Part shown: piece by piece, positions 9,163 to 20,775 of the stretch
How the letters are laid out: every line of letters starts with the position of its first letter
Position numbering within the stretch: the first letter of the stretch is position 1
Assembly (NCBI GenBank): GCA_029838215.1
Contig: JALGVI010000049.1
Coordinates: forward strand, 1 to 22,205
DNA from: Candidatus Helarchaeota archaeon
GTDB taxonomy: Archaea; Asgardarchaeota; Lokiarchaeia; Helarchaeales; RDOG01
Length of the DNA stretch: 22,205 nucleotides
Direction of reading: 5' to 3'
Notes under the pieces: model-generated
Told to the model about the DNA's origin: nothing
The model's input: only the letters and a program-made list of their open reading frames with translations
Databases searched by the model: none
Program-made: the position numbers and the translations under genes

Positions 9163-10824
9163 TCACGGTAGGGGAGGGTCAATTTCGAGGTCTTTCGGAT
9201 ATCGAACCAAATAACGGTATTTTATCTTCATTTCTTCAGATGGCTTTAATTCTAGATCCCATGTAGCAATTCCCAAATCGAATTTCGTTGGCTTGACTGA
9301 AAAATAGTCTTCAACATGTTTCAAGGTCGGTTCTACTTCAATATCAGCAGATTTACTGTGTGGAATGCGATCTATCAAGGTCAATTTTGTTTCTTTCTTG
9401 CGATAATTGTTGATCTTGATTTCATATACATATTCATTTTCTAATTTACCCTTGGTAATGCCTTTTTTGCCGATTTCTCGCTTGGTTAATTTTCTTTCGA
9501 CTTTCATTTCATAAGATAATCGCGTCCCGATCTTGAATTCTTCACTTGGAGATATCACTTTGATGTATGTCTCGCCCACGAAGTCTCCATCGACATAGCA
9601 CTTGACTTTTCCAGGTAAAAGGGTTAAATCACCGTTTTTGATTTTCTCTTGGGCAATTAATTGTTGATCTAGCGAACTCCAATAGAATAGACGGGACGAA
9701 CTTGCCTCGAAATCTTGGAGCAGCACGGGATGTGGATTTCCATCTGCCTTTATCTCCATCTTCTTTGGAATTTTAAAATTTTGAACGCCAAAAGAACTTT
9801 CAGATATGGAGGCGGTTTCGATAGCCATTTCAACAGCAGCGGGTTCGGCAGGGGGACTTTTAGCCATGTAATCGCGGTCCATTGCTAATTCTTCTTCATA
9901 TTCAGCAAATTCCATTTTGTCTTTCGCCTTTCTTTTCTTCATTAAAGAAACACTCTTTGCACGTATCATCGGTGGTTGAGGTGGCGGAGCATAGACGCGT
10001 TCGGAAATATACCACGGATATGGCTCGGTAATGGAAACAGGTTTGAAAGTAGCCGTGGATATTTCCAAGTTCACGTCATTCCAATCTTCAAGAGTCCTGT
10101 TGACGACATTCGCCATGTATCCGATTCGTGTTTCTTCTTCGGTTATCTGCACGTCATAGAATGGAGTCCACGATGCGTTCTTTATTTGGTAAGAAACTTG
10201 TAATTCAAAAACACCGGCACCACTTGATTCAATTGTCACGATAACGGAATAATTTTCTTCAACCCTTCGTTGCTCATCCCCTAACTTGCGAAGTTCTTGG
10301 TTCACTTTTTCAATGTCGATTACATTCTTTTCTAACTTGTCATCGATGTCATGAATGGTGGCTTGAAGTTCCGTGATTTTTTCTTCGCTCAAAGCATGAA
10401 GATCTTTCAAATTTTGGATGGAAGACTCCCCTGCAGCAAAAAACTTGGGAAATTCAGCATTGAAATTGTTGGTGATTTGATTATAATCTTCAATTCTTTT
10501 CTTATGACGATTTTTTTCCGATATAAGTTTTTTCCGTGCTTTTTGAAGATTTTTCATCGTTTCGCGTAATTCATCCAGTTTTTCATGTCCAGTTTTTTCA
10601 ACATAATTGTAATTAACTTCCACGTCTACCAACGTGGCGTTAAAACCTTTTCCAGATCCCTTTACGCGGACACTATCTTTATCAAGAAATTTTGAGATTT
10701 TTTCGACTTTAATCTCATTAAGTCCTTTTTCTAAATTGATTTCACCTGAACGCGTGACACGAGCACCGTCCAGAAAAACGGTAACGTCAGCGATGTCCGT
10801 TTCTACAACTTTGTTTTCGCTCAT
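9163..10824 (-). CDS. DUF4140/DUF4139 domain protein (MuiA-like, TIGR02231-type conserved hypothetical)
   Basis: N-term IADVTVFLDGARVTR...LDKDSVRV, long coiled coil, VSYQIKNASWTPFYD, VVNRTLEDWNDVNLEIST, LLPGKVKCYVDGDFVGET, C-term YEIKINNY...LIDRIPHS...WDLELKP. ATG at 10824 preferred over 10899. Confidence 0.85.
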   Translation of the reverse strand: MSENKVVETDIADVTVFLDGARVTRSGEINLEKGLNEIKVEKISKFLDKDSVRVKGSGKGFNATLVDVEVNYNYVEKTGHEKLDELRETMKNLQKARKKLISEKNRHKKRIEDYNQITNNFNAEFPKFFAAGESSIQNLKDLHALSEEKITELQATIHDIDDKLEKNVIDIEKVNQELRKLGDEQRRVEENYSVIVTIESSGAGVFELQVSYQIKNASWTPFYDVQITEEETRIGYMANVVNRTLEDWNDVNLEISTATFKPVSITEPYPWYISERVYAPPPQPPMIRAKSVSLMKKRKAKDKMEFAEYEEELAMDRDYMAKSPPAEPAAVEMAIETASISESSFGVQNFKIPKKMEIKADGNPHPVLLQDFEASSSRLFYWSSLDQQLIAQEKIKNGDLTLLPGKVKCYVDGDFVGETYIKVISPSEEFKIGTRLSYEMKVERKLTKREIGKKGITKGKLENEYVYEIKINNYRKKETKLTLIDRIPHSKSADIEVEPTLKHVEDYFSVKPTKFDLGIATWDLELKPSEEMKIKYRYLVRYPKDLEIDPPLP

Positions 10825-10958
10825 TTTTTCCACATCATAATTTTTAATTTTATAGAACTGAAAACCGGCTCGTTCCTCTTTACAATAAAAAGAAATCATT
10901 CCTATTCGTTTTTAATCTTCAGATGGAAGTTATACAAGTAATAATCAAATAAAAATTT

Positions 10959-12809
10959 TTAGATTAAAGCAGGGGGGTTTTTGAGATCAAGCTTCTCTTT
11001 AATGGAATATTTTGGAACGATACGCACCGTTTTAAATAAGCCAGAAATGTTTTTACCTTCGGTTATAAACTTGAAATCAATTTTATTTTTATCTGTTGTT
11101 AGAAATTTGGTGATTTCCACGCGATCTGATTCCCAGCAGACCGACTGGACGGGCTTGTCGTTTACAGAGATTTCCATGGCAGAAGTTAATCCATTGAAAT
11201 CTAAAAAGAAGCGATAATGATCATTTGAAAGTGGAATTTCAATTGAATTTGATGCGATATAGATGTGATTATTTAATTTCTTTGTTTTTTTTCGGGATTT
11301 GCTTAATTTTTGAGATGAAGGTCGGATTAACCATTTATTTAAAAAATCTAACGGTTGAATCATTTCATTTTTCTTAAAGTGATAATATTTTTCATTTATT
11401 CCGATAAAGACATCGGGCATTGATGAATATCCAATGAGATCTCCTGTTTTCGAGTTAAAATCTTCAACGATCATGTTGGTTTTCGTGATGTGAAGTGAAG
11501 GCACCTCTGGAATGAGTTGTATCATGCGAAATTCGTGAGGCAAGAACTCCATTGAAAAAGAAGTCTTTCCACTCAATTCTGAAAAAACCTTGAATTGTTG
11601 AATGAGCCCATCTTGAACTCCCCAATTGAGAAGATTGCCAACGCCATCCAAATTGACTTTAATGTCATTAGTTTTATTCGTCCCATTTATTAAAATGACG
11701 AATGTAGATGACCCTAATGAGAAAATATAATTTTTAAAATGTCGCTTGATGCGAACGAGCTCATTAATTTTTATTGCGGGATCGTGAAATCGATTTAATA
11801 AATCTTCAATGTAAATCTCGGCTTTGACTTCAGAAGATATTTCATATGGAACAAAGAAGAACAGCTTGTCTTGCGTGTCAAAATGAGCACTGGGGCTTCT
11901 GTAACGATAGAATAAGTCTCCGAAAAATTCGTGCCTCATTTTTGCGATGTACCTTCGTTGCATCCTTCGTCCTCGCTTGAGCGGAAAAACCGCAAACACG
12001 AAAATGCCATTTTCGGTTATTGTTTTCAAAACATTTAGCAATTCTTCGGATTGCTTGAAATGCGATAATAGGATGAGAGCATCGAGTTTTTGACCGTTAT
12101 ATAGCAACCCAGATTCATCGAACTTCGGGGTCGATTTCAACAAATCGGCTTCGGGGATGAATTCATGATCGAATTGCAAATGAAATAATGTTCTCGAAAC
12201 GGTCAATACTTCCGAAGTGATATCCCGAATTTTGGTTTTGGGATCAATTTCAGATCTCTTGACAATGTCAGGAACAACAAATCCAATCCGTTTCATTCTT
12301 TTTGGTTGCAAGGAAAAAAATAAACCCAATCTCGAAAACAATTCAGTGAATCGAGGATATTGCCGAGTGCTTGACAATTGTTCGAATACAGAAAGATCGA
12401 TACAATAGTCTTTTAAAGTGAGAAAAGTGCCAAACGCCTTATCATCAAATTCCAACTTCGAGTTCATGAAATACTCGGAAAGTGCCACAAAATCGGTCAT
12501 TAAAATGTAAGGATAAGAATTTTTGGAATTTTTGGTTGCAAGCCATGTCAGCTTTTCAAGGAGAGCGGCCGCGTCTTTGGTTTTTGAAAGTGGAATGTCA
12601 TGCACGAATATTGGTGCGGGTTTCGCCCCTTTTTTTAAGGAGGAATATTTAGATTTCAGGGTCTTTAGCGGTTGAGAAAAATCCAAGAATCGCGGTTTCA
12701 ACTCGGAAGAAAACTCTGAAATATTCACGAACTCTTGTCGAAGCTTGTCTAATTCTGTTTGCGATATTTTTCTCACCAAAACAGATATTTTAATTTTTAT
12801 ACATAACAA
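10959..12809 (-). CDS. Hypothetical protein resembling the non-catalytic C-terminal two-thirds of GH106/GH2-type glycoside hydrolases
   Basis: Middle segment LFHLQFDHEFIPEADLL...LLYNGQKLDALIL resembles the GATase-like domain. C-terminal FLDFNGLTSAMEISVNDKPV...W...VEITKFL...N...SGLFKTVRI resembles the galactose-binding jelly-roll. Recognised by pattern only; start codon uncertain. Confidence 0.6.
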   Translation of the reverse strand: MLCIKIKISVLVRKISQTELDKLRQEFVNISEFSSELKPRFLDFSQPLKTLKSKYSSLKKGAKPAPIFVHDIPLSKTKDAAALLEKLTWLATKNSKNSYPYILMTDFVALSEYFMNSKLEFDDKAFGTFLTLKDYCIDLSVFEQLSSTRQYPRFTELFSRLGLFFSLQPKRMKRIGFVVPDIVKRSEIDPKTKIRDITSEVLTVSRTLFHLQFDHEFIPEADLLKSTPKFDESGLLYNGQKLDALILLSHFKQSEELLNVLKTITENGIFVFAVFPLKRGRRMQRRYIAKMRHEFFGDLFYRYRSPSAHFDTQDKLFFFVPYEISSEVKAEIYIEDLLNRFHDPAIKINELVRIKRHFKNYIFSLGSSTFVILINGTNKTNDIKVNLDGVGNLLNWGVQDGLIQQFKVFSELSGKTSFSMEFLPHEFRMIQLIPEVPSLHITKTNMIVEDFNSKTGDLIGYSSMPDVFIGINEKYYHFKKNEMIQPLDFLNKWLIRPSSQKLSKSRKKTKKLNNHIYIASNSIEIPLSNDHYRFFLDFNGLTSAMEISVNDKPVQSVCWESDRVEITKFLTTDKNKIDFKFITEGKNISGLFKTVRIVPKYSIKEKLDLKNPPALI

Positions 12810-14399: not shown

Positions 14400-16379
14400 T
14401 TGGAAAAAGAATTACATAAAAAGGTCATTGAAAGCCTGAATGATATTGAAGGAAAGGTCGCAAGACAGAAAGCATTACAATTTATAAGAGATAAACAAGA
14501 GGTGCTCAAGGACAACTCGGATTTAATGCATCTTAAATTTACGTTGAAAAGCCTTGAGAAGAAAAATCTTTTTAATTGGAAGAAATTAATTGCTAGTTCT
14601 GTAAATAACTTGAAGGCTAATGGTTGCTACGTATATTTTGCTCAAGATGGAAAAAAAGCCTTTAATTACTTGAAAAAGATTATTCCCGGAAATCTGGTCG
14701 TCAAATCCAAGACAAACACGGGGAAAGAAATTAACCTCGTCAAGAATTTAGAAAGAATGGGATTTGAAGTAATAGAAACGGATTTAGGGGATCGCATCGT
14801 CCAGTTGGATGGTTCTGAGCCATCTCACCCTCTCGTGCCTGCGCTCCACATCCCTAGATCCAGAATAATAACGTTATTTGACACCGAAGGAAAATCTTCG
14901 GAAGATTTGACTGCAAGAGAAATCGTGGATTTGGCAAGAGAGCAGATTCGATCGAAGATACTGGAATCAGAAGTTGGAATCACAGGTGCCAATGCGCTCA
15001 CGGCAGATGAGGGTCTAATCTGCTTGATCGAAAATGAAGGAAACCAACGGCTCATCACCAGCTTACCGAAAAAACACGTCGTGATCACGGGCATTGACAA
15101 GATCGTGGAAAATATTTCGGAAGCCACGCTAATTGCAAAGGTTGCAGCGTTGTTTGGTTTGGGCGAAAAAACCGCGGGATACATATCATTCCTGAAAGGT
15201 CCATCTCGAACGGGTGACTTAGGATTTGAAATTATTGAAGGAATGCACGGTCCAGAAGAGGTTCACGTTATCATATTGGACAATAAAAGATCAGACATTC
15301 TTGAATCATCATACAGTGAAATTCTATTTTGCATAAGTTGCGGAGGTTGCGTGAACTATTGCCCAGTATACGAGCAAGTGGGAGGAATTTTTGGTTCGGG
15401 AGGAGGCGGTCGTGGAGCAGTCTTTATTGGTCTAACCAGAGGACTTCGGGATGGATACTTGGCAGGTCTTGATTTATGTACGGAATGCGGGGAATGCGTT
15501 CAATCATGCCCAACGTCAATTGATGTCCCAAACTTGATAATAAAAATGAGAAAAGAAGCACGAGAAAAGAAATTGACAATAAAACACCATGATGATATCA
15601 GAAATCAAATTATTAATGAAGGAAATCCTTTTGATAAAAAGGATCTTCGCTCTCAATGGTTCAAAAAGCAGAAAATCCACGTCGATCAAGACGCAAAACG
15701 ATTATTTTATGTTGGTTGCATGGCTTCATACAAGATCCCTGACCAAGCAATCCACGCAATGAAGCTAATGAACAAGTTGAACATCAGCTTCAATTACCTG
15801 TTTAATGAAGAGCCGTGCTGCGGAGGAATATTAAAGAGAACGGGTTACGTGCCCGAATTTGAAAATCAAAAAGCAAAAGTAAGGGATATTCTCAAGCAAT
15901 ATTCTGAAATAATTGTTATTTGTCCCGGGTGTTATAGCACCTTTCACTCATTTTACAATGATTTCTTTGAAATAAAAGGAATCCGAGTCAAGCATCTTAC
16001 CGAAATCTTACCACAATACATACAGCACTTTGAACACGGAAAAGAAACTCTAACCTATCACGACCCTTGCCACTTGGGAAGACACGGCAGGGTTTATGAT
16101 AGCCCACGACAGGTCTTGAATAAGGTCGGAAATCTTGTTGAAATGAGATTTAATAAGGAGCGTTCCTATTGCTGTGGAGCAGGCGGAGGTTGCGTGTCCG
16201 CATTTCCAGAAGTAACCAAGCAAATTTGTAAAACGCGTCTCAGCCAAGCACACGAAACAAATGCAAATTATTTGATCAATACATGTCCATTTTGTGAGTA
16301 TAATTTCAAAGAAACAAACTCAAGCAGGATAAAAATAACTTCACTTCAAAAATACCTGTCTACAAAATGCCTGAAATGA
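14400..16379 (+). CDS. LutB-like LUD/4Fe-4S protein fused to two CCG (LutA/GlcF/HdrD-like) domains; putative Fe-S lactate-type dehydrogenase
   Basis: VVKSKTNTGKEI, ETDLGDRIVQL, PSHPLVPALH, GITGAN, ENEGN, GIDKIV, GPSRTGD, HGPEEVHVIILDN. Fe-S motifs CISCGGCVNYCPVY and CTECGECVQSCP. CCG motifs GCMAS...CCGG...CPGC and YHDPCHLGR...CCGAGG...CPFC. Confidence 0.88.
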   Translation: MEKELHKKVIESLNDIEGKVARQKALQFIRDKQEVLKDNSDLMHLKFTLKSLEKKNLFNWKKLIASSVNNLKANGCYVYFAQDGKKAFNYLKKIIPGNLVVKSKTNTGKEINLVKNLERMGFEVIETDLGDRIVQLDGSEPSHPLVPALHIPRSRIITLFDTEGKSSEDLTAREIVDLAREQIRSKILESEVGITGANALTADEGLICLIENEGNQRLITSLPKKHVVITGIDKIVENISEATLIAKVAALFGLGEKTAGYISFLKGPSRTGDLGFEIIEGMHGPEEVHVIILDNKRSDILESSYSEILFCISCGGCVNYCPVYEQVGGIFGSGGGGRGAVFIGLTRGLRDGYLAGLDLCTECGECVQSCPTSIDVPNLIIKMRKEAREKKLTIKHHDDIRNQIINEGNPFDKKDLRSQWFKKQKIHVDQDAKRLFYVGCMASYKIPDQAIHAMKLMNKLNISFNYLFNEEPCCGGILKRTGYVPEFENQKAKVRDILKQYSEIIVICPGCYSTFHSFYNDFFEIKGIRVKHLTEILPQYIQHFEHGKETLTYHDPCHLGRHGRVYDSPRQVLNKVGNLVEMRFNKERSYCCGAGGGCVSAFPEVTKQICKTRLSQAHETNANYLINTCPFCEYNFKETNSSRIKITSLQKYLSTKCLK

Positions 16380-16404
16380 TGATTTGGGACTTAAACCTTG
16401 ATAA

Positions 16405-16428
16405 GAAAAATGAAAAAATAAAAAAATT
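16405..16428 (-). terminator. Putative oligo(T) terminator of the GTPase-longin operon
   Basis: Plus strand A-tracts (aaaaatgaaaaaataaaaaaa) directly follow the 16429 stop codon, giving T-runs on the coding strand. Confidence 0.4.
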
Positions 16429-17373
16429 CTATTCAGGGTCTTTGACTTCTCTTTTAACCAGGCCCTTCAGTGCTTCATTGGCATCAGCAGTTGCTTTCAT
16501 GTAGAGCATCAGGGCCTTGACTTTTGCCAAATATTCCTTTTTCTTGATTTCATAATAATCTCGGGTCGTATCAAATTTCGTGAGCTCCGTTGCCACCTGC
16601 GCAGCACGCTCAAAATGCATTGCTGTTTCGTTGATCAAGTTTTTCTTCAGTGCTTTTATTGCTTTTTCTTCCAGTGCCATTACTTCATCCTGCATTTTCG
16701 GTATCTTGCGAAACATCTGTGATTTATTTGAGAATTTGGCAAAAAATTCTTCTTCCTTGATCTCTTTAAATAACTCCGCGGCTCTCTGATAATATTCTGC
16801 CGCTTTCGAGTGGTCTTTAGTTTTTAATGCATTCTCTGCCTGTTTCAGGGATTCCGCCAGTTTAAAAGGCACTTCATCGGCTTTCTTGAGGAGAGATTGT
16901 GCCTCTTCAAATTTTTTCATGTCCAAGAGTGTTTTTGCACGTTCACTAATCTGGTCGCGAATCTGTGAAGCAGAAAAGGTGAGACCTGAATCAGAAATGA
17001 TTTCCGTTTCATAAATATCTTTGATCAATTCAATCAATTTGGGATTGTCTATGCTATCCTTGATTTGCGGTTCTAATTTCCGTAAAATGTAGAAGAAATC
17101 ACTTGCCGCCTCGGTCACGTTTAACAATAAAAGAAGAATGATCCGCCTGACGGTGTTCTTTTGCTTGAACTGGAAATAATAAGAACTGACATTCGCATCT
17201 TCAACCTGAATTGAAATTTCACCTTCAGGAGGTTCCTTTGCAGTATGCATCATGAATGCTTGCATTGGCAAATCAGAACTGATTTCCAACGTTTCGGGAT
17301 ATTTTAATTTGATCACGGGACCAGTCATCTTGTCCCAATCTATAATAACCATTCCACGTGGCATGTTACTCAC
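16429..17373 (-). CDS. uDENN/longin-like N-terminal domain plus alpha-helical (TPR/MIT/SNAP-like) repeats
   Basis: The N-terminal GMVIIDWDKMTGPVIKLKYP matches the 'hydrophobic-F/W-D-x3-G-P-x5-P' start of uDENN/NPRL2-type longins. The C-terminal half has three A-x3-L...A-x3-Y/F-x2-AA helical units. The GTG start overlaps the GTPase stop (GTGA). Confidence 0.7.
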   Translation of the reverse strand: MSNMPRGMVIIDWDKMTGPVIKLKYPETLEISSDLPMQAFMMHTAKEPPEGEISIQVEDANVSSYYFQFKQKNTVRRIILLLLLNVTEAASDFFYILRKLEPQIKDSIDNPKLIELIKDIYETEIISDSGLTFSASQIRDQISERAKTLLDMKKFEEAQSLLKKADEVPFKLAESLKQAENALKTKDHSKAAEYYQRAAELFKEIKEEEFFAKFSNKSQMFRKIPKMQDEVMALEEKAIKALKKNLINETAMHFERAAQVATELTKFDTTRDYYEIKKKEYLAKVKALMLYMKATADANEALKGLVKREVKDPE

Positions 17374-17912
17374 TTTTTCTTAATTTTTTCAAGAATTTTC
17401 TGAACGATTGTCTGGAACATCAAGTCGACATTCTGTCCGGTCTTTGCAGAAGTCTCCACATAATCCAAGCTCATTTTTTTAGCGTACTTTTCGGCTTCTT
17501 CTTTAGTAACTTCAAGATTGGATTCAAGATCCACTTTATTTCCCACTAAAAGACCGATCTTGACCTTGGATTTATTCATTTTCTGATAATCTTTATTCCA
17601 CGTTAAAGAGTTTACAAGAGTCTGTTTATTCGTGGTGTCGAATACCAAGATATATCCAAAAGCACCTTCATAGAAGATCTTGCGGAATGCTGCAAATTTA
17701 GATTGTCCAGCAATGTCCCAAATGTTTAACTTGATATTTTTATCGCTAAGAGATACAAATTTTTGCGAAACTTGGCAACCTACAGTAGGAATATAGAGCT
17801 GTTCGAACCTCTGCTCGGTATATCTCAGCATTAACGTGGTTTTGCCCACGCTCGGATCGCCAATCACGCATATCTTCCAAGTATAATTCGTCTTTTGTTC
17901 CACGATGATCAC
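17370..17912 (-). CDS. Rab-like small GTPase (Ras superfamily)
   Basis: G1 GDPSVGKTT, G2 YIPTVG, G3 WDIAGQ, G4 NKVD, G5 ETSAK. RabF-like KLNIW, FYEGA, LVFDTT. No C-terminal Cys. Confidence 0.93.
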   Translation of the reverse strand: MIIVEQKTNYTWKICVIGDPSVGKTTLMLRYTEQRFEQLYIPTVGCQVSQKFVSLSDKNIKLNIWDIAGQSKFAAFRKIFYEGAFGYILVFDTTNKQTLVNSLTWNKDYQKMNKSKVKIGLLVGNKVDLESNLEVTKEEAEKYAKKMSLDYVETSAKTGQNVDLMFQTIVQKILEKIKKK

Positions 17913-17956
17913 TCTTTTTCATGCTTAATCTTGTAAAAAATCAGGGTTTTACTCAC

Positions 17957-17980
17957 TATAAATAGAATTTCTATTATAAA
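17957..17980. promoter_or_regulatory. Palindrome AATAGAA-T-TTCTATT flanked by TATA-like boxes upstream of the Rab-like GTPase
   Basis: Perfect 7-bp inverted repeat at 17961-17975. TTTATA-type elements on the minus strand lie at both flanks, about 45-70 nt upstream of the GTPase start. Confidence 0.35.
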
Positions 17981-18125
17981 TAATAGATTCTCAAGTTGAT
18001 GAAATAAAAAATCTTGAATTTCATTCACGGACTTTTTGAAGGACTAAAATTAAAATAACCATCATGAGGTAAGATTGTTTCTCTGAATTGAATGCATTTT
18101 TTCGTGAGAAAAAGGTGAAGAAGAT

Positions 18126-18317
18126 TCATTTAGGACCCGCGGCATAAAAATAGTTCTGTTGGTTGTCAATAAGTAAGTAATCCTTGCCATTCTTGTATAT
18201 TACTTCAATGCCCTTCGATTCAGCCATTTCTTTAAGATCTTCCAACGAAGAAAGATGAAAATCGGCTGCTTTTTGCATGTCAAAATACGCCTTCTTTACA
18301 TTGATTATAACGACCAT
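18126..18317 (-). CDS. Small hypothetical protein (63 aa), paralog of the upstream gene's C-terminal domain
   Basis: ATG start 15 nt after the upstream stop. It aligns without gaps to residues 57-115 of the 18333 ORF with 20/59 identities (counted by hand). Confidence 0.7.
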   Translation of the reverse strand: MVVIINVKKAYFDMQKAADFHLSSLEDLKEMAESKGIEVIYKNGKDYLLIDNQQNYFYAAGPK

Positions 18318-18332
18318 TTTAATCAGCTGGCA

Positions 18333-18662
18333 TTATTCTTTGGAGTAATACCACACCCAGCGGTTGTCCTTAAAGAAATACCGTTTCTTGTGGTGATATA
18401 TGGCTTCAATTTTTAAAAGCTTGGCTAAATCAATCATATCTTGCAAATTTTCTAACTGAAAATCGCACTTCTGATCGGGACTCCAAAGCATCTTCTTGAC
18501 CTCTATGATTTTAGGGAGTCCTTCTGTAGTCAACCCGGATTCATCCTTTGGTTTTATCTTGTCTTCCTTCTTATCGTTTTTCTTCTCTGTTTCTTCTTCA
18601 ATATCTACTTCAACTTCGTCCTTAGATTCTTTTTTCTTGTCGGTAATTTTTACCACTTCCAT
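18333..18662 (-). CDS. Hypothetical protein: charged low-complexity N-terminus plus ~59-aa domain shared with the downstream gene
   Basis: E/K/D-rich N-terminus, then KIIEVKK...DFQLENLQD...IEAIY...Y...DN...YY. ATG at 18662 preferred over TTG at 18680. Confidence 0.72.
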   Translation of the reverse strand: MEVVKITDKKKESKDEVEVDIEEETEKKNDKKEDKIKPKDESGLTTEGLPKIIEVKKMLWSPDQKCDFQLENLQDMIDLAKLLKIEAIYHHKKRYFFKDNRWVWYYSKE

Positions 18663-18706
18663 TTTTGATTCGGAATTCAATTAAGAATTCAATTTAAATG
18701 AAATAA

Positions 18707-19968: not shown

Positions 19969-20775
19969 TTGTTTCATACGATATATCTAATTAATGAAGC
20001 GGGCATTTGCATCTACGAGCGGCATTATGTCGAAAATAAACTCGATCCCGATTTGGTTACGGGGTTCATGAATGCCGTGGGATCTTTCGCCAAAGAGGCA
20101 TTCTTAAGTGGTCTACAATCAATGGAACTTGAGGACAATAAAAGACTCATCTATGGAATCGACTCAAAGAATCGTCTCCTTGCGGCAGCATTAGCAGATC
20201 AAGTAGATCATCCTAAATTACAGGAAAGAATCCTTCAACAAGTCATTGAAGCTTTTTTACACGATTACGAGCAAACATTAAATGATGTCGTGAAGCCAAA
20301 AGTTTATGAGGGGTTCACGGAAAAACTCGATAAGATCATTAAAAGAAGGGTTCGCAAACGGGGAAAACTTCAATTTGGTCTTGCGTGCGGTCTAAGTCTC
20401 CTTTGTGTCTTTTTACTTGGAGTATTCATGAGTCCATTATTGGATGTTCTGAACAATACTCCTTATAGCATATTGGCAATTTTCATTTTCATCCCTCCCC
20501 CATTGGTTAGCGGTCTTGTTGCGGGAAATCGCAAGAATGGGATTATTGCAAGCACTATAACGCTAATACCATTAATACCACTGTTATTGACTTCAGAGCC
20601 GAGATATTTGGGTCTATTATTTATCACTTTCGTGATAATGTTGCTGATGATCGGAAGTTTATACGTGACTCTCGGCATGCTTACGGGTTTTCTCATCGAG
20701 AGGTTTTATCTTTATCCAATACCTGCAAATCTTGAAAAAAAAGCTGAAAAACATCAGAAAATAAAATCGACCTGA
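19969..20775 (+). CDS. Longin-domain protein with C-terminal ~4-TM membrane domain
   Basis: N-term IYLINEAGICIYERHY...DPDLVTGFMNAVGSFAKE...LQSMEL...LIYG...LAAALAD follows the longin (sedlin/sigma-adaptin/MON1-like) pattern. Hydrophobic segments at about aa 134-158, 165-185, 190-208 and 213-243. TTG start after GGAG. Confidence 0.75.
   Translation: MFHTIYLINEAGICIYERHYVENKLDPDLVTGFMNAVGSFAKEAFLSGLQSMELEDNKRLIYGIDSKNRLLAAALADQVDHPKLQERILQQVIEAFLHDYEQTLNDVVKPKVYEGFTEKLDKIIKRRVRKRGKLQFGLACGLSLLCVFLLGVFMSPLLDVLNNTPYSILAIFIFIPPPLVSGLVAGNRKNGIIASTITLIPLIPLLLTSEPRYLGLLFITFVIMLLMIGSLYVTLGMLTGFLIERFYLYPIPANLEKKAEKHQKIKST

Follow-up and report, generated by a model that had tools for sequence, protein, structure and literature searches.

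Small GTPases encoded next to a regulator of the Roadblock/longin superfamily have been described in prokaryotes. In the bacterial and archaeal MglA-MglB system, a Ras-like GTPase is encoded beside a Roadblock regulator that acts as its GTPase-activating protein (GAP) (PMC10933270). For Asgard archaea, Liu et al. reported NPRL2-like longins and an operon that combines a Rab-like GTPase with a LAMTOR1-like Roadblock protein and a DENN protein (10.1101/2020.10.19.343400), and a 2025 study in Traffic found that some Asgard longins carry a GP motif and an arginine finger, while their client GTPase was left open and suggested to be Arf-related or Rag (PMC12290439). In a cultured Lokiarchaeon, GTPase and longin/Roadblock genes are generally not arranged in operons, so Asgard GTPases could usually not be matched to their regulators from genome layout (Tran et al., PMC10933270). 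Here, we describe a two-gene locus of a Candidatus Helarchaeota archaeon (GCA_029838215.1, contig JALGVI010000049.1, positions 1 to 22,205, hereafter the window) in which a gene for a Rab-like GTPase is directly followed by a gene for a protein with an N-terminal longin domain and a C-terminal helical domain (hereafter the partner). In Asgard genomes, small GTPases and longin/Roadblock proteins each number in the dozens, and for this pair gene order allows the match. The two genes might form a cognate GTPase-regulator module in which the partner's longin domain binds the GTPase, most likely as a GAP with R74 as arginine finger, and the helical domain acts in docking; we hold this reading tentatively, at somewhat less than an even chance.

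The locus resembles the operon of Liu et al. in that a Rab-like GTPase gene is kept beside the gene of a DENN/longin-superfamily regulator in Asgard archaea. However, their operon comprises three genes and occurs in most Asgard archaea, whereas the present module has two genes and is found in one clade; we rejected the identity of the two, since the partner has no DENN domain and no Roadblock gene stands beside the pair in any locus read. The MglA-MglB system shares the adjacency of a prokaryotic small GTPase gene and a Roadblock/longin-superfamily regulator gene, but the partner has longin topology and its GTPase is Rab-like, not MglA-like. MglB itself shows the Roadblock topology, which includes an N-terminal helix, and contributes no arginine finger. 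To NPRL2, FLCN, SMCR8 and C9orf72, the partner is similar in its longin fold, a GP motif at the start of strand 2, the WD spacing of C9orf72, a conserved arginine near the strand 4-5 turn that is a candidate equivalent of theirs, and its association with a small GTPase. Unlike these proteins, it lacks DENN, TINI and C-terminal NPRL2 domains and has a TPR/MIT-like tail instead, its presumed client is Rab-like while theirs are Rag or Arf, and it is a single small protein that probably acts without a large heteromeric complex. Prior publications thus cover Asgard longins of the NPRL2 and FLCN types and an operon with a Rab-like GTPase and a DENN protein. The present module is a variant of these that differs in joining a longin to a TPR/MIT-like domain without DENN, in consisting of two genes with no Roadblock gene among them, in its Rab-like presumed client and in its restriction to one clade. 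A two-gene GTPase/longin-helical module was not found in the literature searched.

Locus organization and conservation

The features of the locus, all on the minus strand, are as follows.

17955-17986, minus: putative promoter region 5' of the GTPase gene (read from the sequence)
17370-17912, minus: Rab-like small GTPase gene, 180 aa, GTG start (Pfam Ras, Rab matches in the Protein Data Bank, PDB)
17365-17369, minus: spacer GTAAC, 5 nt, between the GTPase stop and the conserved ATG of the partner (sequence and homologue starts)
16429-17364, minus: partner gene, 311 aa from ATG, stop TAG at 16429-16431 (list of open reading frames, homologues, AlphaFold2)
16981-17364, minus: longin domain, residues 1-128, beta-beta-alpha-beta-beta-beta-alpha-alpha (model secondary structure, structure matches)
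17317-17337, minus: W10-D11-K-M-T-G15-P16 (WDxxxGP), end of strand 1 to start of strand 2 (orthologue conservation, C9orf72 spacing)
17143-17148, minus: R73-R74 at the start of strand 5, R74 being the candidate arginine finger (orthologue conservation)
16441-16971, minus: C-terminal helical domain, residues 132-308, six long helices in three hairpins (models, TPR profile matches)
16489-16710, minus: last three-helix bundle, residues 219-292, with MIT-like shape (exhaustive VIA-align search)
16405-16428, minus: T-rich tract AATTTTTTTATTTTTTCATTTTTC directly after the partner stop (sequence and layout of the reading frames)

In each of the 13 distinct orthologous loci, which belong to the order of the window and to family f7, the gene directly upstream of the partner gene is a co-directional GTPase gene. 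Gaps between the two genes range from -1 to 21 nt in the ten loci of the window's own order, i.e. linkage is tight, and from 12 to 134 nt in family f7. The flanking genes differ, those upstream varying between UFM1-ligase-like, FTR, NMO and radical SAM genes and small open reading frames (ORFs), and the arrangement holds over long branches, with partner identity down to about 25-33% while both flanks have been replaced. The genome of the window contains ~70 small-GTPase genes in 3.6 Mb, and by our estimate roughly 4% of genes would have a GTPase gene as direct neighbour by chance. None of 21 more distant members from the sister clade is linked to a GTPase gene, although the longin-plus-helical architecture is kept there; this architecture is found in nearly every genome of the class, as a survey of the phylum (400 genomes) showed; in family f6, for instance, 134 of 135 genomes have it. 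In a maximum-likelihood tree, the linked proteins all fall on one side of a branch with 98/96 support, and as family f7 has both linked and unlinked types, the two are paralogous subfamilies. The conserved gene pairing that the initial annotation had anticipated, with a synteny survey as its check, therefore holds throughout one clade but is not general across Asgard archaea. A scan for conserved stretches with an alignment of close homologues returned two genome loci, and the metagenome sequences were two near-copies of these.

Homologues of the partner occur with 58-66% and 33-35% identity in records labelled Helarchaeota or Lokiarchaeota, and an exhaustive HMMER search yielded 80 clusters of relatives. 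The N-terminal 120 residues of the family are also found alone or joined to other C-termini, and long members bear TPR or TrmB-type winged-helix domains, without a GTPase; a dedicated search for fused longer forms of this domain gave none, which is weak evidence according to the tool itself. The genome of the window has 11 genes with the N-domain (10 besides that of the window), three of which adjoin a GTPase gene. One paralogue is a 129-aa longin-only gene located 88 nt downstream of a 666-aa GTPase-containing protein (C49:35275-37752); another encodes 327 aa just upstream of a 200-aa GTPase (C83:24410-29401), with three further GTPase genes within 3 kb.

The two co-directional minus-strand ORFs were at first delimited as 17370-17912 (GTPase) and 16429-17373 (partner, 314 aa counted from GTG). 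The GTPase stop TGA lies at 17370-17372, and the letters GTGA at 17373-17370 of the minus strand had been taken as an overlap of stop and start that couples the two genes translationally. Those letters are present, but the two genes probably do not overlap. A conserved Met-Pro opens the protein in 5/5 close homologues and in almost all 72 aligned members of the family, and the corresponding codon in the partner is the ATG at 17364, 5 nt past the GTPase stop, which is therefore its most likely start, rather than the GTG at 17373. Residues of the partner are numbered from this ATG throughout. The AT-rich region upstream of the GTPase gene contains the TATA-like TTTATAAT (17973-17980) and TTTATAGT (17955-17962). 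A perfect 16-nt palindrome, CTATTATTTATAATAG (17971-17986), encloses the TATA-like TTTATAAT; it might serve as a binding site for a regulator or simply reflect AT-richness. Downstream of the partner, the next gene is convergent. Oligo-T tracts end archaeal transcription, and the T-rich tract at 16405-16428 might mark the end of a two-gene transcript, so that we infer a single transcription unit of GTPase and partner from the layout. A search for sequencing runs matching 16300-18200 listed two DNA runs with small word shares and no RNA run.

The longin domain of the partner

The AlphaFold2 model of the partner (72 sequences) is confident, with a predicted local distance difference test score (pLDDT) of 95.3 and a predicted template modelling score of 0.78. 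Its N-terminal elements (strands 4-11 and 15-22, helix 32-40, strands 49-54, 57-68 and 71-81, helices 87-104 and 110-125) have the order of a longin domain. VIA-align placed the Lokiarchaeota longin 8yqg on top (Z 13.1), followed by NPRL2 (9o5d_D, Z 12.8 over 124 residues), Lst4 (12.2), NPRL3 (12.0), DENND1A (11.7), the folliculin-complex chain 6nzd_H (11.4) and DENND1B (11.2), while longins of SNARE, TRAPP and adaptin sigma proteins reached 10.4-10.8; altogether, longin matches, including VAMP7, Sec22b and Ykt6, span Z 10.4-13.1 over 107-127 residues. For 8yqg, NPRL2, Lst4, DENND1A and 6nzd_H, the aligned stretch is 110-126 residues long. Hence, the best match overall is an Asgard longin and the best solved eukaryotic one is NPRL2. 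Foldseek ranked NPRL2/NPRL3 chains (GATOR1/SEAC) first, then the Lokiarchaeota longin, Ykt6, Fuzzy/Inturned, Lst4, DENND10 and DENND1B, and in the ESM Atlas the nearest clusters outside the partner's own Asgard family were NPRL2 (three clusters), Avl9/DENND11 and C9orf72. A Roadblock structure appeared only in 43rd place with Foldseek, below longins, and the N-terminal helix of Roadblock/MglB proteins is missing from the partner model, in which strand 1 begins at residue 4.

At the sequence level, Pfam recognised no family in the N-terminal half of the partner, and for ten N-domains searched with E up to 10 there were chance-level matches plus one uDENN match in a single homologue (E 0.076). 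Profile searches against PDB sequences with whole-family and N-domain alignments found no longin; the C-terminal part matched TPR proteins, and the N-domain gave chance matches. PF06218 matched nothing in the genome of the window, and the matches of PF11704 were other proteins, not the partner. Neither a core DENN nor a dDENN domain was detected in the partner, where residues 132-308 are all-helical and give no Pfam DENN match, nor was any found above cut-off in the genome. The initial assignment of a uDENN/NPRL2-type N-terminal domain is thus well borne out as a fold by Foldseek, VIA-align and the Atlas, with NPRL2 as closest solved eukaryotic match to a confident longin model, but it finds no sequence-level support in Pfam or profile matches.

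Conserved motifs

The N-terminal signature IIDWDKMTGPVIKLKYP, by which the initial annotation had recognised this domain, is present in the partner as quoted and includes the WDxxxGP motif. W10, D11, G15 and P16 are kept in 12-13 of the 13 GTPase-linked orthologues (G15 invariant, P16 in 12/13), whereas in the unlinked sister clade (21 members) the tryptophan is missing throughout and D, G and P are each found in only 2-3 members. R74 is likewise invariant in the linked orthologues (13/13, as RR, QR or ER) and occurs in one of the 21 unlinked members. In total, conservation of W10, D11, G15, P16, F37, M38 and R74 is confined to the GTPase-linked clade, while H40, S61, L81 and E85 are common to both sets. 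His40 (66/72 sequences, ~17245-17247) and Ser61 (63/72, ~17182-17184) are near-invariant, also in the clade lacking WD, GP and Arg.

G15 and P16 are the first residues of strand 2 in the partner model. A GP motif in this position is reported to be specific to the GAP longins FLCN, NPRL2, SMCR8 and C9orf72 and absent from DENND, TRAPP and adaptin longins (PMC12290439). Moreover, the WDxxxGP spacing equals that of W33-D34...G38-P39 in C9orf72 (PMC12290439, PMC8213707), where W33 and D34 contact ARF1 and their mutation abolishes ARF1 GAP activity (PMC8213707). A longin topology would put the turns between strands 1 and 2 and between strands 4 and 5, as well as the C-terminus of helix 1, at one end of the sheet and bring R74 near the WD and GP residues.

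The C-terminal helical domain

The helical repeats reported at the C-terminus were recovered as six long helices, i.e. three hairpins, in the models and by a match to the consensus TPR profile. Modelled alone, the domain reached a pLDDT of 96.1. Its profile matched consensus TPR proteins (E 6e-11), Tom70 (4.5e-06) and HOP, with the first helices matching the TPR consensus. Pfam gave only sub-threshold TPR, MIT and COG4_N matches in this half of the protein; TPR_2 scored 18 bits on the window's partner, under the cut-off of 27, and matched in 16 of 72 family members. By shape, residues 219-292 are MIT-like: the exhaustive VIA-align search placed the MIT domain of Sulfolobus solfataricus Vps4 (2w2u_B) first, with 71 of 74 residues superposed at a root-mean-square deviation of 1.3 A and 20% identity, and with a Z of 12.3 that is within the range helical bundles reach by common arrangement. 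MIT domains made up 14 of the top 30 rows of this search, including the tandem MIT of calpain-7 over 127 residues. The likeness to MIT proteins (Vps4/CdvC, calpain-7, LIP5/Vta1, NRBF2) lies in the superposition on archaeal Vps4 and in the share of MIT domains at the top of this search; in contrast to these, the Pfam MIT family PF04212 stays far under its cut-off (15 bits, E 0.09, cut-off 30) and falls on residues ~171-206, not on the best-fitting bundle, and no genes of the endosomal sorting complex required for transport (ESCRT) were found near the GTPase-partner pair. The C-terminal domain thus appears TPR-like by sequence and MIT-like by shape, the latter being a similarity of fold only.

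The GTPase and its longin-fused paralogues

The GTPase belongs to the Ras family (Pfam PF00071, E 7.6e-48, 162.6 bits against a cut-off of 21.6), and its best sequence matches among solved structures are Rab2A (4e-38), Sec4, Rab14, Rab8A and a Thorarchaeota Rab (2e-33), so that the earlier designation as Rab-like was confirmed by similarity. All motifs are in place (G1 GDPSVGKT, the switch I threonine in YIPTVG, G3 DIAGQ with the catalytic glutamine, G4 NKVD, G5 ETSAK), and G1-G5 are invariant across the 13 orthologues. A C-terminal cysteine for prenylation was found neither in the GTPase, which has a basic tail (...EKIKKK), nor in its orthologues, and it is therefore Rab-like rather than a eukaryote-type Rab.

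In a tree, the ten cognate GTPases of the window's order form a clade (support 96), whose sister group (support 97) consists of GTPase domains from the same genome, C143_13738 and C86_36709, followed by C52_4229 and C52_5380; the GTPases of family f7 were not resolved relative to this clade in the quick tree. These four nearest paralogues are all fusions with a folliculin-type (PF11704) longin N-terminal to the GTPase, and the C143 and C86 fusions reach the PF11704 cut-off. The GP motif is present in all four and ARG/KRG before strand 5 in three, the exception being C52_5380, which has no arginine there (AISG). Together with the Asgard FLCN/SMCR8-type GP longins (PMC12290439), the fusions share with the partner the GP motif and an arginine before strand 5, and the GTPase subfamily to which they are coupled is the one nearest to the window's GTPase. 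They differ in that the fusion longins match Pfam Folliculin at its cut-off and contain a D-x-x-A-R-G loop, neither of which applies to the partner, and in that the longin precedes the GTPase in one chain, whereas in the window the regulator has its own gene downstream of the GTPase gene and is extended by a helical domain. From these sequences, we read the lineage of the window's GTPase as one habitually coupled to a GP-motif longin, by fusion or by operon.

The folliculin-type longins lie at C143:13738-14784, C86:36709-37800, C52:4229-5272, C52:5380-6441 and C74:19428-20735; the two C52 fusion genes are in tandem, and the C74 gene, which also has GP and ARG/KRG motifs, is a fifth of this type in the genome, only the other four being fused to a GTPase. 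With the folliculin-type longin of the C143 fusion as query, the only homologue recovered was the protein itself.

Proposed function and alternatives

The two-gene unit would encode a Rab-like molecular switch together with its own regulator. The longin domain would bind the GTPase via the end of the sheet where W10-D11, G15-P16, the C-terminus of helix 1 (F37, M38, H40) and R74 meet, and most likely speed GTP hydrolysis, with R74 as an arginine finger placed beside the catalytic Gln70 of the GTPase. The partner may be a homodimer in which one chain combines the C9orf72-type WD contact with the SMCR8/NPRL2-type arginine, and the TPR/MIT-like domain could dock a third component onto the switch. 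A complex prediction of the partner (72-row alignment) and the GTPase (13-row alignment) with GTP and Mg, run without controls, gave ipSAE values of 0.23/0.28 and a mark of 0.32, and was counted neither for nor against binding.

The initial annotation had proposed the opposite activity, i.e. a guanine nucleotide exchange factor (GEF) for which the longin would be the exchange platform, as in Mon1-Ccz1, TRAPP and DENN proteins. Most characterised longin platforms are indeed GEFs (PMC10933270, PMC12290439), the uDENN domains of DENND1A and DENND1B match the partner (Z 11.7 and 11.2), one homologue shows the faint uDENN match mentioned above, and Liu et al. proposed a GEF function for the Asgard Rab-like GTPase/DENN module (10.1101/2020.10.19.343400). 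However, the partner has no core DENN domain, its best eukaryotic structure neighbours are NPRL2, Lst4 and NPRL3, and DENND and TRAPP longins are reported to lack the GP motif (PMC12290439), while the WD and the arginine that track with GTPase linkage belong, as WD/GP plus arginine finger, to the hallmarks of GAP longins (PMC12290439, PMC8213707). We therefore dropped the GEF label and consider GAP more likely, because WDxxxGP and an invariant arginine are motifs of the GAP class of longins; the co-operonic MglB, being the GAP of MglA, can be counted as a precedent. An exchange factor seems rather unlikely. A non-catalytic effector or adaptor, which would bind the GTP form and recruit other proteins through the TPR/MIT-like domain, or would need a paralogous longin partner to act, is a somewhat better though still minority prospect. 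Helical domains of this kind are typical of protein docking; the unlinked sister clade retains the architecture without WD, GP and Arg, so that the family seems to have a function independent of these residues; eukaryotic longin GAPs are heterodimeric; and the genome holds ten further genes with the N-domain. On the other hand, an invariant arginine and a WDxxxGP motif that appear only alongside GTPase linkage exceed the needs of a plain effector, and the nearest paralogues of the GTPase are fused to arginine-bearing folliculin-type longins. That the two genes are neighbours without a functional tie, an adjacency inherited in a GTPase-rich genome, is very improbable: ~70 small-GTPase genes and the confinement of linked loci to one clade, where adjacency could be a single historical accident, would allow for it, but order and tight spacing have lasted over long branches (identity ~25-33%) with both flanks replaced, and clade-specific conserved residues coincide with linkage.

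Several observations speak against a GAP with R74 as its finger. The Z values of GAP-type longins exceed those of DENND1A/B, SNARE, TRAPP and adaptin sigma longins by 1-2 units only, and with such a margin the fold alone does not separate GAP from GEF. The Pfam families NPR2, Folliculin and C9orf72-like gave no match to the window's partner and nine relatives with E up to 10. Using hhalign, the probability of a relationship with Asgard folliculin-type longins was 63% with the broad family profile and 2.9% with the linked clade alone, and we make no claim of sequence homology to PF11704 given the latter value. In this alignment GP aligns with GP but the arginines do not align, the folliculin-type ARG falling on K69, 4-5 residues before R73/R74, and the presumed proximity of R74 to WD/GP is deduced from longin topology. 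Linkage and motifs change together on one branch and thus constitute a single, unreplicated evolutionary contrast. In eukaryotic longin GAPs, a catalytic paralogue forms a heterodimer with a non-catalytic one, and there are extra domains that the partner lacks. A more far-reaching version, in which the partner is a minimal ancestor-type longin GAP that unites the WD contact and the arginine finger in a single chain and acts on a Rab-like GTPase instead of Rag or Arf, and in which its tandem MIT-like domain couples to ESCRT-III-type filaments, seems improbable; if true, it would be a direct prokaryotic link from small-GTPase signalling to membrane remodelling.

For one family, the locus offers a concrete candidate answer to the question of which GTPase Asgard GP longins act on, and if the client is truly Rab-like, it would help to decide whether FLCN, GATOR1 and C9orf72 inherited their Rag/Arf specificity or acquired it later. 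The pair is small and soluble-looking (180 + 311 aa), encoded in a conserved operon and equipped with clade-specific candidate catalytic residues, and the unlinked sister clade without those residues is a natural negative control. A pre-eukaryotic origin of longin-domain GAP activity thereby becomes testable with two recombinant proteins.

Other genes in the window

Just upstream of the GTPase gene are two small ORFs in tandem on the minus strand (18126-18317, 63 aa, and 18333-18680, 115 aa), which have a C-terminal domain of ~56 residues in common (36% identity, E 3e-11, no Pfam family). They were rejected as members of the module, not being found beside the GTPase-partner pair in other loci; in locus L003 their relatives adjoin a NUDIX gene and not the GTPase pair. 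About 2 kb from the pair, a gene on the plus strand (19969-20775, 268 aa) encodes a protein with a faint N-terminal match to the first longin of Fuz/MON1/HPS1 (E 0.067) and a hydrophobic C-terminal half that is probably multi-pass membrane; its Atlas neighbours are only clusters of Asgard hypothetical proteins, and the protein is possibly a longin/Roadblock-like one anchored in the membrane. A DUF4139/DUF4140 protein and a 616-aa ORF without Pfam family adjoin each other on the minus strand (9163-10899 and 10959-12809). The other genes of the window are metabolic, such as a pyridoxal phosphate-dependent decarboxylase, ketopantoate reductase, an OMPdecase-RraA fusion, LUD/CCG iron-sulfur proteins, hydrolases, GNAT, NUDIX and cupin.

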